Shown here: positions 6,137 through 31,174 of the stretch, in pieces
Layout: the number at the start of each line of letters is the position of its first letter
Position numbering within the stretch: the stretch's first letter is position 1
Origin: Metaclostridioides mangenotii
Lineage (GTDB): Bacteria > Bacillota > Clostridia > Peptostreptococcales > Peptostreptococcaceae
Assembly (NCBI RefSeq): GCF_018917235.1
Contig: NZ_JAHLOF010000005.1
Location: 185,129-217,128, forward strand
Direction: 5' to 3'
Length of the DNA: 32,000 nt
Made by a program: the position numbers and the translations under genes
Notes under the pieces: model-generated
The model's database searches: none
What the model saw: the letters and a program-made list of their open reading frames with translations, nothing else
Told to the model about the DNA's origin: nothing

Positions 6137-6335
6137 GAAAAATAAAAAACTCGAAGGTCTTATCTTCGAGTATTTGAATCAGTTTAAAACAAAATGCTTT
6201 TAAGCTTTTTCAATCTCTTCTCTCATCCAGACTTTACTGTCGGCTTTGGAATTTCACCAAATCAACTACTCTATGGTAGGTCGCGGGCTTTTACCGCCGG
6301 TAGGGAATTTCACCCTGCCCCGAAGATCTTCTGTA
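6137..6335 (-). promoter_or_regulatory. FMN riboswitch (RFN element) with a terminator-type expression platform
   Basis: The minus strand reads ...TCTTCGGGGCAGGGTGAAATTCCCTACCGGCGGTAAAAGCCCGCGACC...GATTTGGTGAAATTCCAAAGCCGACAGTAAAGTCTGGATGAGAGAAGAG, which matches the conserved RFN core. It is followed by CTCGAAG-N7-CTTCGAG (6150..6170) and TTTTTTATTTTT. Confidence 0.93.
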
Positions 6336-19235: not shown

Positions 19236-19520
19236 CAAAAATTAGAAGGGGATACTTCAAAACATAAAATAAATTCATCTTATATCTCAAAGTATCCCCT
19301 TCTTAAAAATAATATTTAGTTGACCTGGTCTTTGCCCCCACACTCGCCTACTGGAGGGTTCGCTTGGGTTCGCCGCACTACTACTCTCTCTCGATTTTAT
19401 TATCGGTAGGACTTACTTCTAAGCCGCACCATGCTCATTAGCAACATTTTTATCGCTAACTTACGTGGGTCCTTTTGCCTGCGACTGGCATGGACTTTCA
19501 ACCACAAACCTAAATATTAC
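19236..19520 (-). ncRNA. Structured non-coding RNA between comFC and hpf; candidate raiA-motif RNA, with its own promoter and terminator
   Basis: About 200 nt of markedly GC-richer sequence sits in an AT-rich spacer with no ORF. Complementary segments include CCATGC 19429..19434 with GCATGG 19488..19493, TTAGC 19438..19442 with GCTAA 19455..19459, and CCCAC with GTGGG. A terminator follows on the minus strand: GAAGGGGATACTT 19302..19290 pairs with AAGTATCCCCTTC 19257..19245, then CTAATTTTTG. The comFC-[RNA]-hpf/raiA context is the one reported for the raiA motif. I have not run the covariance model. Confidence 0.6.
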
Positions 19521-26087: not shown

Positions 26088-26325
26088 CCTCCTAACATAA
26101 TATTGTTAGGTAAAATGCTTAAATTTAAGACTAAAATTGTCTTTATTTAAGTCTAACATCCTACCCGCAGAAGATATTAGCTAATATATTAGGCAGTTCT
26201 CCCGGCTTAATTTCATCCTCGATCTTTCCTTCCCGATTTTACTCAGTGGTGTTTTAAGATCTCGTCCATATCACGGTTACTGGGTTAGCTTGGAATTTCC
26301 ATCCAATTCCCTATTAAGTCATATT
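26088..26325 (-). promoter_or_regulatory. Cobalamin (B12) riboswitch with an SD-sequestering expression platform
   Basis: The minus strand reads TTAATAGGGAATTGGATGGAAATTCCAAGCTAACCCAGTAACCGTGA..., and the B12 box AAGCCGGGAGAACTGCCT is the complement of 26191..26208. Downstream, CCTAACA (26110..26104) pairs with TGTTAGG (26097..26091), which overlaps the AGGAGG SD (26093..26088). Confidence 0.88.
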
Positions 26326-26427
26326 GACACCAAATATATTTTTAATCTCTATTCCAATTAAAAATTATCATATTTTTTTATTTTTAGCAAGTTATAAATT
26401 TTATCAAAATTTATATGTAATAATGGT

Positions 26428-27790: not shown

Positions 27791-27958
27791 AAAAAACCTC
27801 TTCTATTATTCCACAGAAGAGGTTAATTACCGTAACAATGTACTAATTAACTGACCTCATCTCTCAAGACTAATCGTCTTGTAGGAATTAGCACCTTCTC
27901 CCATATGGGTGGTTGCTGGGCTTCACAGGGCCTGTCCCTCAGCCTCTCTTGATAAGGT
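27791..27958 (-). promoter_or_regulatory. SAM-I riboswitch (S-box) with a terminator
   Basis: The minus strand reads CTTATCAAGAGAGGCTGAGGGACAGGCCCTGTGAAGCCCAGCAACC...GAAGGTGCTAATTCCTACAAG...TTGAGAGATGAGG. It is followed by AACCTCTTCT-N11-AGAAGAGGTT and T6 (27824..27791). Confidence 0.93.
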
Positions 27959-28104: not shown

Positions 28105-28668
28105 ATGGTATTTTATGCTTCAGATATTCATATATATCTTTTGAAGGGGGTGTTCCTATTGTATTTGACCAAAGTAAACTACATTGAGGAAAACGCAGTT
28201 GATCTCCTTAGTTCATCCCTCAAGGACATAATAGATGAAGACACCATTGTAGTTTGTATAGGAACAGATAGGGCTATCGGCGACACTCTCGGCCCTTTAG
28301 TTGGAACAATTTTAAAAAACAACAGTTATAAATACCCTGTCTACGGAACACTTGATAACCCTATTCATGCACTAAATATATATGAATCTTTAGATGAGAT
28401 TAAGAATAAACACCAAAATGGCAATTTTTTAGCCATAGACGCTTGTCTAGGATCTGAAAGCACTATAGGAAATATACAAATTAGAGAAGGACCCATACTC
28501 CCTGGAAAAGGTGTCGGAAAAAAACTCCCCCAGATAGGAAATTATTCAATTGTGGGAATTGTAGATAAAATAGATGAAAACAATAGGTTTTCGTTTAATA
28601 ATATACGTTTGAGCTTTATCTTTGATTTAGCTGAAGCTATCGCTCTTTCAATACTAGTATCGACATGA
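28105..28668 (+). CDS. yyaC: Spore protease YyaC-family protein (GPR/HybD-like fold)
   Basis: VVCIGTDRAIGDTLGPLVGT and AIDACLG are characteristic of YyaC. The true start may be the TTG at 28159, 8 nt after GAAGGGGG (28143..28150), rather than the ATG at 28105, which lacks an SD. Confidence 0.8.
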   Translation: MVFYASDIHIYLLKGVFLLYLTKVNYIEENAVDLLSSSLKDIIDEDTIVVCIGTDRAIGDTLGPLVGTILKNNSYKYPVYGTLDNPIHALNIYESLDEIKNKHQNGNFLAIDACLGSESTIGNIQIREGPILPGKGVGKKLPQIGNYSIVGIVDKIDENNRFSFNNIRLSFIFDLAEAIALSILVST

Positions 28669-28873: not shown

Positions 28874-29755
28874 TTATCGTATTGTATTATCTTCGACCAA
28901 TTTTGCAACTCCATTTTTATCTAAGCTTCTTGAAATTATGTTCATCCCTGATATTTGTTTCTTATTCTGATCTCCTACAGTATATAATATCTCTGTATTA
29001 TATAAGCAGTTAAAAATATTTCTATCCAATTTAAATGGAACTTCGATTTCTTTTTTTTCTCCAGGTTTTATGGTAATACTTTTATCTAGTTTTTCTAGGT
29101 CTATTATATTATCATTACTTACTCTAATTGCTTTTATTACTACATCTTCTTTAACTTTATTTTGGATTTCTGTATAAAAGTAACTTTTCAAATAGTCCTG
29201 TGTTTCGCGATCTTTAATCTCATAAAAGTTCATAGAGGTTTCACCAATCATAAATTCTAAATCAGTACCAAATACATTCTTAGGGTAAATTGTTAAGTAA
29301 AACTTACCTAAATTTATTTTATGAGTACTTTTACTACCAGTTATTTCTATATTTAAATCATCAAATTTATATGTACCTTCATTTTTTGGAATTACATCAA
29401 TAAGTAGTGAATATGTCTGATAATATTTATTATACTTTCCTCCTCCATCCTCTAATTTTACTATCTGTATATTTTCAATATCTAAAGCATCATTATTATT
29501 TATTTTAGCAGTTGACCCTTCACTAAACTCATCATCAAAATCATAAATGTTCATCTGAATCAAAAATCTATCACCGACAGTTGAAATAACATTACTTGAC
29601 CATTTATTATCGATAATTAATTCTTTATTACTCGAAAGTAACCTTTTATTTTCAAAAGAGATTTTATCTTCTTGATTGTCAGTCTTAATAAACATACATA
29701 ATACTATTAAAGTTGCAGCAATTACTATTAACCTAGCTATTATACTTTTTGACAT
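28874..29755 (-). CDS. Hypothetical N-terminally membrane-anchored protein; no recognisable domain
   Basis: 293-aa ORF with SD AAAGGAGGAA. One N-terminal hydrophobic helix (IIARLIVIAATLIVLCMFI) is followed by a Lys/Asn/Asp-rich, probably extracytoplasmic, beta-rich body. I do not recognise any motif. Confidence 0.6.
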   Translation of the reverse strand: MSKSIIARLIVIAATLIVLCMFIKTDNQEDKISFENKRLLSSNKELIIDNKWSSNVISTVGDRFLIQMNIYDFDDEFSEGSTAKINNNDALDIENIQIVKLEDGGGKYNKYYQTYSLLIDVIPKNEGTYKFDDLNIEITGSKSTHKINLGKFYLTIYPKNVFGTDLEFMIGETSMNFYEIKDRETQDYLKSYFYTEIQNKVKEDVVIKAIRVSNDNIIDLEKLDKSITIKPGEKKEIEVPFKLDRNIFNCLYNTEILYTVGDQNKKQISGMNIISRSLDKNGVAKLVEDNTIR

Positions 29756-30067
29756 AATTTCCTCCTTTAGTATTTACTTTCTTATTGTAATATTTACCAA
29801 ATCTCTCTTGCAATCACTGTACTTGTACATATGTACTAGTCTTTAATTTTATTACATTCTCTTTAAGAGTATCTACAATTTGTAGTAATCATTTAGAAAA
29901 GAAAAGCTTACAGTTAATTCTAATAATACTGTAAAAAAGTAATTCCGAAAAGTACTAAAATAGCCAAATAATAAATTATCTAAATATTATATATCTGGTA
30001 TGGTATTTAATCTTTTATTATTAAGACAATTAAATTTTATTAATTTGACCATTTTAAAAAGTTTTTT

Positions 30068-30110
30068 AAAAAAACTGGCTCTAAAACGACTACAGTCGTT
30101 TTAGAGCCAG
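30068..30110 (-). terminator. Rho-independent terminator inside repeat copy A
   Basis: CTGGCTCTAAAACGAC (30075..30090), loop TACA, GTCGTTTTAGAGCCAG (30095..30110): a 16-bp perfect stem. On the minus strand it is followed by T7 (30074..30068). Confidence 0.85.
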
Positions 30111-30392
30111 TTATAGATTCTTTTGGATTTTTTCAGAAAACTATTTCGTACATTCTAATCTTAAAGCCGTGTCACCTAAAACTCTCTTCTATCAACTATT
30201 TAATTTTGTAGCATCAACTTGTATTCCGAACTTTGTATATTTTATAGGATTATTATTTAATTAGTGGAGTATTTCATCCACTAATATACTATATTCTATT
30301 AATGTACTTTTAGTTCGCATTTTGTCATAATTTGTACTTTATTATTTTTAAGTTAATATTTTTAATAAAAATAAAAAGTGATTTCATAATTG
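30068..30392 (-). repeat. Tandem non-coding module, copy A (about 325 bp), carrying its own intrinsic terminator
   Basis: It aligns to 30399..30721 with a period of 331 bp. Positions 30191..30354 are 100% identical to 30522..30685. It contains the hairpin TTAGTGGA-N8-TCCACTAA (30261..30284). No ORF is conserved between the two copies. Confidence 0.9.
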
Positions 30393-30398
30393 ATATAT

Positions 30399-30442
30399 AA
30401 AAAAACTAGCTCTAAAACGATCTGTAGTCGTTTTAGAGCCAG
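30399..30442 (-). terminator. Rho-independent terminator inside repeat copy B
   Basis: CTAGCTCTAAAACGA (30406..30420), loop TCTGTAG, TCGTTTTAGAGCCAG (30428..30442): a 15-bp stem with one A-C mismatch. T7 follows on the minus strand (30405..30399). Confidence 0.75.
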
Positions 30443-30721
30443 TTATAGATTCTTTTGGATTTTTTAAGAAGACTATTTCGTACATTTTCAATCTAAAAGC
30501 CGTGTCACCTAAAACTCTTCTATCAACTATTTAATTTTGTAGCATCAACTTGTATTCCGAACTTTGTATATTTTATAGGATTATTATTTAATTAGTGGAG
30601 TATTTCATCCACTAATATACTATATTCTATTAATGTACTTTTAGTTCGCATTTTGTCATAATTTGTACTTTATTATTTTTAAGTTTATATTTAATAAAAA
30701 TAAAAAGTGATTTCATAATTG
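30399..30721 (-). repeat. Tandem non-coding module, copy B (about 323 bp), directly downstream of fabZ
   Basis: See copy A. Differences from A are confined to the terminator loop, the roughly 90 bp next to it (several 1-3-nt indels) and the distal 20 bp. It begins 24 nt after the fabZ stop, with no other terminator in between. Confidence 0.9.
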
Positions 30722-30745
30722 TATTTTATTTTGTTGAATTATTAT

Positions 30746-31174
30746 TTACTTTTCAACTAGCGCAAACATAAGGTCTCCCTTGCACGCAAGTTCATCCCCA
30801 ACATATGCCTTAGCAGTTGCTTTACCAATATTTCTTCTTATTGAAATCATCTCTATTTCCATTGTAAGTGTATCACCTGGTCTTACTTCTTTCTTAAATC
30901 TAACATTATCTATCCCAGCAAACACACCTAATTTTCCTTTGTTCTCATCCATAGACATCATAGCTACAGCTCCAACTTGAGCAAGTGCTTCTATTATAAG
31001 AACACCAGGCATTAGAGGATATTCTGGAAAATGACCTTGGAAAAATGGCTCATTAGCAGTTACATTTTTTATACCGACAGCTCTTTTCCCTACCTCTAAT
31101 TCTATTATCTTGTCCACTAAAAGAAATGGATATCTATGTGGGATTATTTCTTTAATTTGATCTATATTTAGCAT
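30746..31174 (-). CDS. fabZ: 3-hydroxyacyl-[acyl-carrier-protein] dehydratase FabZ
   Basis: 142-aa hot-dog fold protein with [18 protein letters not shown], and [11 protein letters not shown], the canonical FabZ motifs. Confidence 0.96.

Follow-up and report, generated by a model that had tools for sequence, protein, structure and literature searches.

A candidate non-coding RNA gene behind fabZ, tandemly duplicated in Metaclostridioides mangenotii

Tandem sibling sRNAs that arose by gene duplication are well documented, as with PrrF1/PrrF2 of P. aeruginosa, OmrA/OmrB of E. coli and AbcR1/AbcR2 of Agrobacterium and Sinorhizobium (PMC4211561), and sRNAs derived from 3' UTRs form the largest sRNA class of C. 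difficile (18 of 42; PMC8237595). As a case related to both, we considered the intergenic region that follows fabZ in a 32-kb stretch of the Metaclostridioides mangenotii genome (the window). Like the tandem siblings, this region holds two homologous head-to-tail units between the same two genes, each with a promoter-like site and an intrinsic terminator, and these units originate from a gene duplication; as in OmrA/OmrB, some parts of the two are identical and others have diverged, and copy number differs among relatives (one Omr in Yersinia, one unit in the sister species of the present host). By contrast, it has no sequence or Rfam relationship to those sRNAs, its predicted RNA is longer (about 227 nt against 80-150 nt), its host is a Gram-positive clostridium, and the upstream copy also terminates a protein-coding operon. 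The resemblance to 3'-UTR-derived sRNAs such as DapZ, CpxQ and SroC of enterobacteria lies in the position directly after a stop codon, on the same strand, with the sole terminator of the mRNA common to both, and a possible internal promoter right after the coding sequence recalls those of "type I". On the other side, C. difficile has no homologue of the element downstream of its fabZ, and copy A, because a full terminator separates it from fabZ, would be a free-standing gene.

The unit is probably, though by no means certainly, a non-coding RNA gene of the M. mangenotii complex, of about 227 nt, that at the same time provides the 3' UTR and terminator of fabZ and that has been tandemly duplicated into sibling sRNAs. 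This reading draws on the restriction and position of the element, the constraint on its body, the compensatory changes in its terminator, its promoter-like site, the lack of coding capacity, the duplication of the whole gene, and the orthology and gene conversion of the copies. The RNA gene would have been inserted between fabZ and the convergent yyaC, and in each unit a sigma-A-type promoter-like site would lead into an AU-rich RNA with a short 5' stem-loop, a largely unstructured remainder and a strong terminator. Copy B would double as 3' UTR and terminator of mbl-fabZ transcripts, so the RNA may arise from its own promoter, by processing of the fabZ mRNA (as a 3'-UTR-type sRNA) or in both ways, and in the species of the window a tandem duplication of the whole gene, comprising AT-rich tract, promoter and terminator, would have produced two sibling RNAs. 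Support for a discrete RNA consists of the conserved promoter-like site, the moderate sequence conservation and the terminator; such an RNA may accumulate and may act in trans, by base-pairing or by binding a protein. If expressed, it would represent an sRNA family not described before, in a relative of C. difficile from the gut and the infant gut, and would show cleanly, in a natural case, how sibling sRNAs are born; otherwise it has no bearing on a long-standing open question.

Both copies lie on the minus strand, in a 990-bp gap (29756-30745) which is, as originally described, the largest ORF-free gap of the window. Copy B, proximal to fabZ, occupies 30399-30721 and copy A, distal to it, 30068-30392; the head-to-tail arrangement stood up to re-examination, with a period of 331-333 bp, and the two are 95.7% identical over 327 columns (E 1e-149). 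Each is AT-rich and non-coding and consists of the same parts, namely an AT-rich 5' extension with A/T tracts upstream of the -35 element (30666-30721 in copy B, 30335-30392 in copy A), a promoter-like site, the RNA body and a terminator. The 5' extension is part of the duplicated unit and is absent in the single-copy sister species. The perfectly identical block, given as 164 bp in the original prediction, in fact measures 171 bp (30184-30354 in copy A, 30515-30685 in copy B, 100% identical), and in copy B it extends over the promoter-like site and the RNA's 5' half. The 8-bp hairpin TTAGTGGA-N8-TCCACTAA that had been reported is present, at 30261-30284 in copy A (-10.2 kcal/mol) and at 30592-30615 in copy B, where the minus-strand 5' stem-loop reads UUAGUGGA-N8-UCCACUAA; its inner 5 bp (GUGGA/UCCAC) are kept in 12 of 12 sequences.

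Minus-strand hairpins followed by T7 had been claimed at the end of each copy and both were found again, with stems of 17-18 pairs and not the 15-16 announced. The intrinsic terminator of copy A (30068-30112) has an 18-bp stem (30112-30073), a 4-nt loop and U7 (-29.2 kcal/mol), and that of copy B (30399-30444) a 17-bp stem (30444-30404), a 7-nt loop and U7 (-23.4 kcal/mol); these are two terminator-like sites for 0.2 expected. Between species, six of the 17 pairs of the stem show compensatory changes and six show one-sided compatible changes, and pairing holds in 99.5% of the stem cells, dropping to 33-46% once the partner strand is slid. Pairing is kept between species and sequence is not, and selection evidently acts on the terminator stem. 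Covariation in the element was confined to this stem. The claim that fabZ has no terminator of its own also holds: fabZ, the last gene of the mbl-fabZ unit (30746-31174, minus strand), is separated by no hairpin from the copy B stem at 30444-30404, counting from its stop codon at 30746, and the same hairpin-free arrangement is found in L011, L107 and L116. The terminator of copy B is consequently the first after fabZ; transcripts of fabZ must run into copy B, which is necessarily their 3' end.

The promoter-like site comprises a -35 element ATGACA, a 16-nt spacer and a -10 element TACATT, at 30632-30659 in copy B (-35 at 30659-30654, -10 at 30637-30632) and at 30301-30328 in copy A (-35 at 30328-30323, -10 at 30306-30301), on the minus strand, which would place the RNA start near 30625 and near 30294, respectively. 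The sister species has TTGACA-16-TACATT or, in strain TR, a -10 element GACATT. Homologues differ in spacer and discriminator but not in the 22 nt that follow, and between species homology sets in about 8 nt ahead of the -35 element. The site may be active as a sigma-A-type promoter; the match is weak (9/12, with a -10 element TACATT and a spacer of 16 nt), and the region contains 15 such matches for 12.6 expected, that is, no enrichment.

The original prediction had raised the questions of whether the element always follows fabZ, whether its copy number varies and whether the duplication could be an assembly artefact. The element is restricted to the M. mangenotii complex, a range far narrower than the Peptostreptococcaceae, the family rightly named in the original prediction, and lies directly after the fabZ stop in every carrier (L011, L107, L112, L135, L115-L119 and L125-L127); in C. 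difficile, Romboutsia, Paraclostridium and other Peptostreptococcaceae, 55-115 bp separate fabZ from the convergent yyaC. Copy number does vary, from one in the sister species to two in the species of the window, and the sampled steps run from no element in other genera through one copy to two. Seven of the eight same-species assemblies that span the locus keep both copies intact, with promoter-like site and terminator, and since these seven are independent and contain two diverged tandem copies the duplication is real. The eighth, L127, has a single chimeric copy, possibly an unequal-crossover revertant. Orthologous B copies were recognized in the same-species strains L115-L119, L125 and L126, and orthologous A copies in L115-L119, L125, L126 and L134; comparison of these copies establishes that duplication of the whole gene predates strain divergence within the species.

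The divergence between the two copies is unevenly distributed, as had been pointed out, and is non-random: with 12 events over 325 nt, a stretch of 171 nt or more would stay free of them with a probability of 0.0014. Selection and gene conversion had both been offered as causes. In the 3' region, we counted 5 events between the A copies of the window and of L116, 7 between their B copies and 12 between copies A and B of the window; in the core, the two copies of the window differ by 0 events, against 8 for the two copies of L116. The identical core is confined to the lineage of the window, and between species the core is less well conserved (about 85% identity) than the 3' part of the body (about 92%). 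Gene conversion is favoured because the 3' parts match their counterpart copies in other strains and the core is identical in the window lineage alone, and selection is not, as the core is less conserved between species and differs in sister strains. The 171-bp core is by this comparison a later gene-conversion tract and not a footprint of selection, and concerted evolution by gene conversion is here visible at single-nucleotide resolution.

Conservation of the body bears directly on the most serious alternative, which we consider unlikely without being able to treat it as negligible, namely that in this lineage a few hundred bp of AT-rich DNA came to lie between fabZ and its terminator, that the body is a non-functional spacer or passive 3' UTR of fabZ, that the terminator alone is functional, and that the whole was duplicated by unequal recombination or slippage and homogenised by gene conversion. 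For the two species-level lineages available, identity of the body amounts to 86-89%, with 25 differences over 231 columns; at neighbouring third codon positions it is 63-69% (fabZ) and 70% (3' quarter of yyaC), and at the 4-fold sites of fabZ, mbl and metK 59-69%. The body evidently diverges more slowly than synonymous sites, roughly a third as fast as third codon positions in the genes on either side (binomial P 3e-13 against 31% expected difference), and this, together with invariant stretches between species of up to 44 nt (and of 35 nt before the terminator), the intact state of both copies in seven of eight assemblies and a homology that starts precisely at the -35-like hexamer, speaks against a spacer. 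However, the 4-fold sites of yyaC are 85% identical between species and, were the local neutral rate as low as this, conservation of the body would be no more than marginal (P = 0.04); other intergenic DNA of the locus is 88-89% identical, about as much as the body. Within the species the copies diverge at about the rate of 4-fold sites, and the core tolerates deletions of 4-6 nt. Clustering of the body differences, a possible sign of motif-level constraint, is not significant (P = 0.055-0.09). Folding of the body gave no excess of structure over shuffled sequence (MFE z +0.42 and -0.08), and consensus folds of 5 and then of 12 homologues supported the terminator and no helix in the body. Duplex folding against the 28 translation-initiation regions of the window yielded no target (best -31.8, for a shuffle mean of -28.8 and a minimum of -37.1). 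These observations, with the weak and unenriched promoter match and the lack of covariation outside the terminator, are to be weighed against an sRNA gene, and the single chimeric copy of L127 would also agree with a spacer that is easily gained and lost.

Within the sRNA-gene reading, a bolder proposal, speculative and in our opinion rather improbable, is that the element stands for a regulatory RNA of a new class, long (about 227 nt), AU-rich, for the most part without structure and confined to the M. mangenotii complex. It would be physically coupled as 3' end to the mbl-fabZ operon (cell envelope and fatty acids), and the element would have arrived along with an orphan protein that evolves fast and is anchored in the membrane. 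With gene conversion preserving part of their identity and the 3' halves drifting apart, the siblings might then control regulons that overlap without coinciding, or might together act on an RNA-binding protein as a sponge of doubled dosage.

The orphan gene in question encodes 293 aa and lies downstream of copy A (28874-29755, minus strand). It is present in some strains of the species and absent in others, an exact look-up of its protein found nothing on record, and the AlphaFold model is of low confidence (pLDDT 64). In the window, L107, L112 and L135 it follows the element on the same strand and, tandem riboswitches being known, these repeated terminator-ended units could be taken for a cis-regulatory leader or attenuator that controls read-through into it. 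We hold this to be very unlikely, since, unlike tandem riboswitches and attenuators, the element contains no folded, covarying aptamer (z about 0) and has no Rfam match, and its consensus fold gave no alternative antiterminator pairing. The orphan gene has, moreover, its own promoter-like site (TTGCAA-18-TACAAT, 29813-29784), 28 nt upstream of its RBS; a second terminator-like hairpin intervenes between it and the element in L107 and L135; and in L109, which encodes a homologue of 33% identity, a search of the upstream region found no element-like sequence. Several carriers lack a same-strand gene downstream, either because it is absent or because the next gene is convergent, as in strain TR and in same-species strains, yyaC being this next gene in L011 and in L115-L119; retention of the element in TR and L115-L119 proves little against an attenuator, however, because the losses of the orphan gene there are recent.

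Less credible still is a remnant or member of a MITE-like mobile or dispersed repeat family, although the insertion is lineage-specific, adjoins a gene cassette present in some strains and absent in others, and coincides with breaks in short-read contigs. The ends of the units show neither terminal inverted repeats nor a target-site duplication, the element occupies the same site, directly after the fabZ stop codon, in two species, and the contigs break exactly where the tandem pair alone predicts, Logan unitigs stopping precisely at the first 31-mer common to both copies. The 32-kb window holds no further copy of the unit, and 50,697 phage records, 72,556 plasmid records and IMG/VR returned low-complexity AT matches alone. 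A scan of the genome collection with the 21-mer GTTCGGAATACAAGTTGATGC gave 0 matches, a result of little weight, since the 21-mer falls on the part of the body that varies most, and a metagenome scan with GTTTTAGGTGACACGGCTTT gave 6 chance matches, all in one unrelated coding gene, this collection evidently being without contigs like the motif-bearing L127. The suspicion that the unit belongs to no known RNA family was borne out by Rfam, with no match at gathering thresholds over the whole window; the region, searched at E up to 10, and the element of the sister species matched sub-threshold hairpin look-alikes alone (Srn266, SpF25 and miRNA precursors), all on the terminator and none with a score close to the gathering cut-off of its family. 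A literature search on sRNAs of M. mangenotii found nothing relevant.

That the element encodes a peptide, be it a micro-ORF product, another small protein or a type I toxin, has hardly any likelihood. Its non-coding nature, argued in the original prediction, is upheld: no ORF of at least 12 codons is kept in frame between copies or species, and none has an SD. The 31-codon GTG ORF of copy A, which encodes a hydrophobic 31-aa antisense product, survives in the A copies of two strains. It lacks an SD, and the frame is disrupted in the B copies, as had been noted for the window, and in the sister species too. The remaining candidate is a micro-ORF of 6 codons in copy A (AUG-UAC-GAA-AUA-GUU-UUC-UGA, MYEIVF; 30133-30153, minus strand), conserved as M[YF]EI[VI]F in the A copies and in all single-copy homologues, where AUG/GUG, Y/F and V/I changes keep the frame open. 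However, no part of the body varies more than the patch that contains this micro-ORF, an SD-like motif (AGGUGA) comes no closer than 17-18 nt upstream, and the stop of the micro-ORF is lost in all B copies (30465-30485 in the window), with differing frames downstream; it is probably not functional. The database look-up of a spurious 35-aa ORF returned nothing on record.

An equally remote reading, in which the element is a candidate DNA-level binding region for a protein such as SpoIIID and the TGACAA box a binding site rather than a -35 element, could appeal to ATGACAAA, which fits the loose SpoIIID consensus WWRRACAR-Y, to the phased A/T tracts upstream in the unit and to the sporulation genes that ring the locus (spoIID, spoIIID and yyaC, SpoIIID being encoded two genes upstream), but so degenerate a motif occurs often in AT-rich DNA, and the conserved 180 nt downstream and the terminator would be left unexplained.

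One arm of the copy B terminator (GTTTTAGAGCTAG) resembles type II-A repeats; a CRISPR or tracrRNA link was rejected, as the pairing of the stem is conserved between species but its sequence is not, and no array is present. On the practical side, short-read unitig assemblies all break at the fabZ locus because of the 331-bp tandem repeat.

Both copies of a non-coding unit of ~325 bp lie head-to-tail in the 990-bp ORF-free gap between fabZ (31174-30746, minus strand, preceded by mbl at 31975-31193, also minus) and the next gene, which encodes a 293-aa orphan protein (29755-28874, minus strand). Like the relevant genes of the locus, the unit is read on the minus strand, with copy A, distal to fabZ, at 30068-30392 and copy B, proximal to it, at 30399-30721. 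Past the orphan gene is the convergent yyaC (DUF1256; 28105-28668, plus strand), named "spore protease YyaC" by its sources, which has a terminator in common with the orphan gene, and beyond it come a SAM riboswitch and then metK. The copies are 95.7% identical, with a G+C content of 24-25% versus 31.6% across the 32-kb window, in which no further copy resembling the unit was found.

On the minus strand, copy A ends in a perfect hairpin of 18 pairs (-29.2 kcal/mol) and copy B in one of 17 pairs (-23.4 kcal/mol), each followed by U7; the scan for terminator-like sites returned 2 where 0.2 were expected, and no hairpin was found between the fabZ stop and copy B. The original prediction, of tandem non-coding copies with their own terminators and of a fabZ gene with none before copy B, was accurate except for two details: the block identical between copies measures 171 bp (30184-30354 = 30515-30685) rather than 164 bp, and the stems have 17-18 pairs rather than 15-16. 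Although the terminator sequence has strongly diverged between species, a comparison of 12 sequences revealed compensatory changes at 6 of the 17 stem pairs and one-sided compatible changes at 6/17, with 99.5% of the alignment cells paired as compared to 33-46% when the partner was slid. The hairpin is clearly under selection as a structure. The 3' arm of the copy B terminator (30399-30416, minus strand) reads GTTTTAGAGCTAG, an exact match to the opening 13 nt of S. pyogenes-type II-A CRISPR repeats and of the sgRNA scaffold; this likeness was judged coincidental, since only the stem pairing, not the sequence, is conserved between species and no CRISPR repeat array lies nearby.

The FabZ of the window is identical to WP_216467533.1, annotated Clostridioides (Metaclostridioides) mangenotii; DNA identity to M. 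mangenotii strain TR (L011) is only ~88%, and the window therefore belongs to a different species-level lineage from TR. In C. difficile, Romboutsia, Paraclostridium and other Peptostreptococcaceae, 55-115 nt separate the fabZ stop from the end of the convergent yyaC, space for one common terminator and nothing more. The element is adjacent to fabZ in all carriers and varies in number, with a single copy directly after the fabZ stop in TR and in three metagenomic relatives (L107, L112, L135) and two tandem copies in seven independent assemblies of the window's species (L115-L119, L125, L126; 98% DNA identity to the window, 92-96% at 4-fold sites). Logan unitigs of this species, from both the fabZ and the orphan-gene sides, end exactly at the first 31-mer common to both copies. 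Together, the loci of the relatives, the seven assemblies and the unitig breakpoints indicate that the element is an insertion specific to this lineage, always at the same site, and that the duplication is real and species-wide, which disposes of the assembly duplication against which the original prediction had cautioned. A JGI contig of the same species (L127, 3807-4135) has just one copy, a chimera that is B-type at its 5' end and A-type from there on, with the switch falling within a 46-nt stretch common to both copies; it is either a deletion allele produced by unequal crossover or a collapsed assembly.

In the 3' body and terminator, copy A of the window is nearest to the A copies of its sister strains (5 events) and copy B to their B copies (7), versus 12 events between A and B within the window, and the orthologues have diagnostic states in common (GAAGAGAG in A copies versus GA--AGAG in B copies; UUUUCUG versus UCUUCUU). 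The duplication is therefore older than the split between these strains. The core follows another pattern: A and B do not differ in the window and differ by 8 events in the sister strains, and the core of the window's copy A carries B-derived states. The uneven divergence first noticed between the copies is significant, the ~12 differences being clustered (P = 0.0014 for an event-free run as long as the 171-bp block), and had been attributed to selection or gene conversion acting on the core. Because the block is identical only in the window, contains B-derived states and is less conserved between species than the 3' body (~85% vs ~92%), it is, on these comparisons, a gene-conversion tract and not the footprint of stronger selection; the earlier interpretation, supported in part, stands for conversion, non-coding character and terminators, and falls for selection on the core. 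Similar mosaics occur elsewhere, the A copy of L118 having a B-type deletion and that of L134 the B-type variant of L118.

Homology between species starts ~8 nt upstream of a hexamer whose sequence is ATGACA in the window but TTGACA in the sister species, and which is followed by a 16-nt spacer with 3-4 positions differing between species, TACATT (GACATT in TR), a variable 7-8 nt and then 22 invariant nucleotides. Such a pattern is as expected from a sigma-A promoter and transcript start, and a start near 30294 or 30625 would yield an RNA of ~227 nt; given a modest match, of a kind that is not enriched in AT-rich sequence here, we treat the promoter as inferred. The window's species also has, upstream of the -35, some 60 nt of additional AT-rich sequence containing A/T runs; this tract lies within the duplicated unit, and therefore the whole putative gene was copied (tract, promoter-like site, body and terminator). 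The order of events, an insertion, then a whole-gene tandem duplication, then gene conversion, is well resolved.

We propose that each unit is a gene whose product is an AU-rich RNA of ~227 nt that opens with a stem-loop at its 5' end and closes with an intrinsic terminator. Since mbl-fabZ transcripts must also end in copy B, the RNA might have its own promoter, be processed from the operon transcript, or arise in both ways. The element has the same architecture as 3'-UTR-type sRNAs, the largest class of mapped C. difficile sRNAs (18/42; PMC8237595), and the tandem pair fits what is known of sibling sRNAs that arose through gene duplication, such as PrrF1/2, OmrA/B and AbcR1/2 (PMC4211561). 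A duplex search for targets among the 28 start regions in the window performed no better than shuffled controls. On balance we lean slightly towards each unit encoding a functional RNA, and the element is a candidate for a new, narrowly distributed sRNA family.

In the main rival reading the terminator alone is of consequence, and the body (which starts at the promoter-like site and stops just short of the terminator) would be passively carried 3'-UTR DNA that happened to be duplicated. Identity of the body between the two species is 86-89%, with 25 differences over 231 columns, compared to 63-69% at adjacent third codon positions of fabZ, 70% at those of the adjoining quarter of yyaC and 59-69% at 4-fold sites of fabZ, mbl and metK. 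Against an expected difference of 31% this gives P = 3e-13, but other intergenic stretches of the locus are likewise 88-89% identical, the body is marginal (P = 0.04) against the rate of the unusually similar 4-fold sites of the whole yyaC (85%), and within the species the divergence rate of the copies is close to that of 4-fold sites, with deletions of 4-6 nt tolerated. A passive body is argued against, though not decisively, by a divergence slower than that of synonymous sites, by two copies having stayed intact across strains and by a conservation pattern shaped like a promoter. As for yyaC itself, its 4-fold identity to L011 10927-11490 is 0.85, versus 0.59-0.69 in its neighbours, and falls from 0.94 at the 5' end to 0.70 at the 3' end; this silent-site similarity and gradient suggest an interlineage recombination tract ending inside or just beyond yyaC.

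That the element is a leader or attenuator of the orphan gene is unlikely, because that gene has its own promoter-like site (TTGCAA-18-TACAAT, 29813-29784), is absent from TR and the seven two-copy assemblies, and is separated from the element by a second hairpin in L107 and L135, and because the element is missing upstream of a 33%-identical homologue in a more distant lineage (L109); as the losses of the gene are recent, such a role keeps a small probability. The gene is present in the window and the three metagenomic relatives. Its protein, for which 5.8 billion proteins contain just two clusters of homologues, evolves very fast (55% identity between species, compared to 92-95% for the neighbouring proteins). 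An AlphaFold model of low confidence (pLDDT 64) has a TM helix at the N terminus and all-beta domains after it, and the Pfam matches, DUF1573 and BatD, are weak. The ~1.2-kb cassette (gene and upstream region, 28874-30067; compare L116 4511-4760) is strain-variable within one species, the 98%-identical assemblies being without it; the gene is split into ORFs of 105 and 187 aa in L097 and measures 273 aa in L100. In L109 (6694-8448; yyaC 85% identical) the homologue adjoins yyaC and is transcribed divergently from a sigma-70 gene of the ECF type; L109 lacks the fabZ-linked element.

The 5' stem-loop keeps its 5-bp core GUGGA/UCCAC in 12/12 sequences, with a single change, U-A to U-G. For the rest of the body, predicted folding is no stronger than in shuffled controls (z = +0.42 and -0.08) and the homologue alignment has no covariation, which argues against a riboswitch-like domain. 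Rfam 15 gave nothing near threshold for the element of the window or of the sister species, in agreement with the initial failure to recognise a known riboswitch or sRNA family, and the weak matches fall on the terminator, whose hairpin they resemble; nothing similar occurs in the phage, plasmid and IMG/VR collections. Coding had also been rightly rejected: no ORF of at least 12 codons is common in frame to the two copies, to different strains or to the two species, and none of that length in the unit has a Shine-Dalgarno. The sole recurrent frame, a 6-codon micro-ORF (M[YF]EI[VI]F), is regarded as incidental, lying in the element's most variable patch, with the nearest SD-like motif 17-18 nt off and its stop gone in all B copies.

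Elsewhere in the window, Rfam families above gathering score, all on the minus strand, are raiA RNA (19311-19518; 182.5 bits), an FMN riboswitch (6211-6331), the SAM riboswitch upstream of metK (27854-27958) and a cobalamin riboswitch (26175-26349). In L111 (2843-4739), from the window's species, yyaC is truncated to residues 75-187 in one sample; right before it come a large serine recombinase of 509 aa (Resolvase and Recombinase domains) and ~4 kb of HTH-type and unknown genes, an arrangement that resembles the recombinase-bearing intervening elements, skin-like, that interrupt sporulation genes.
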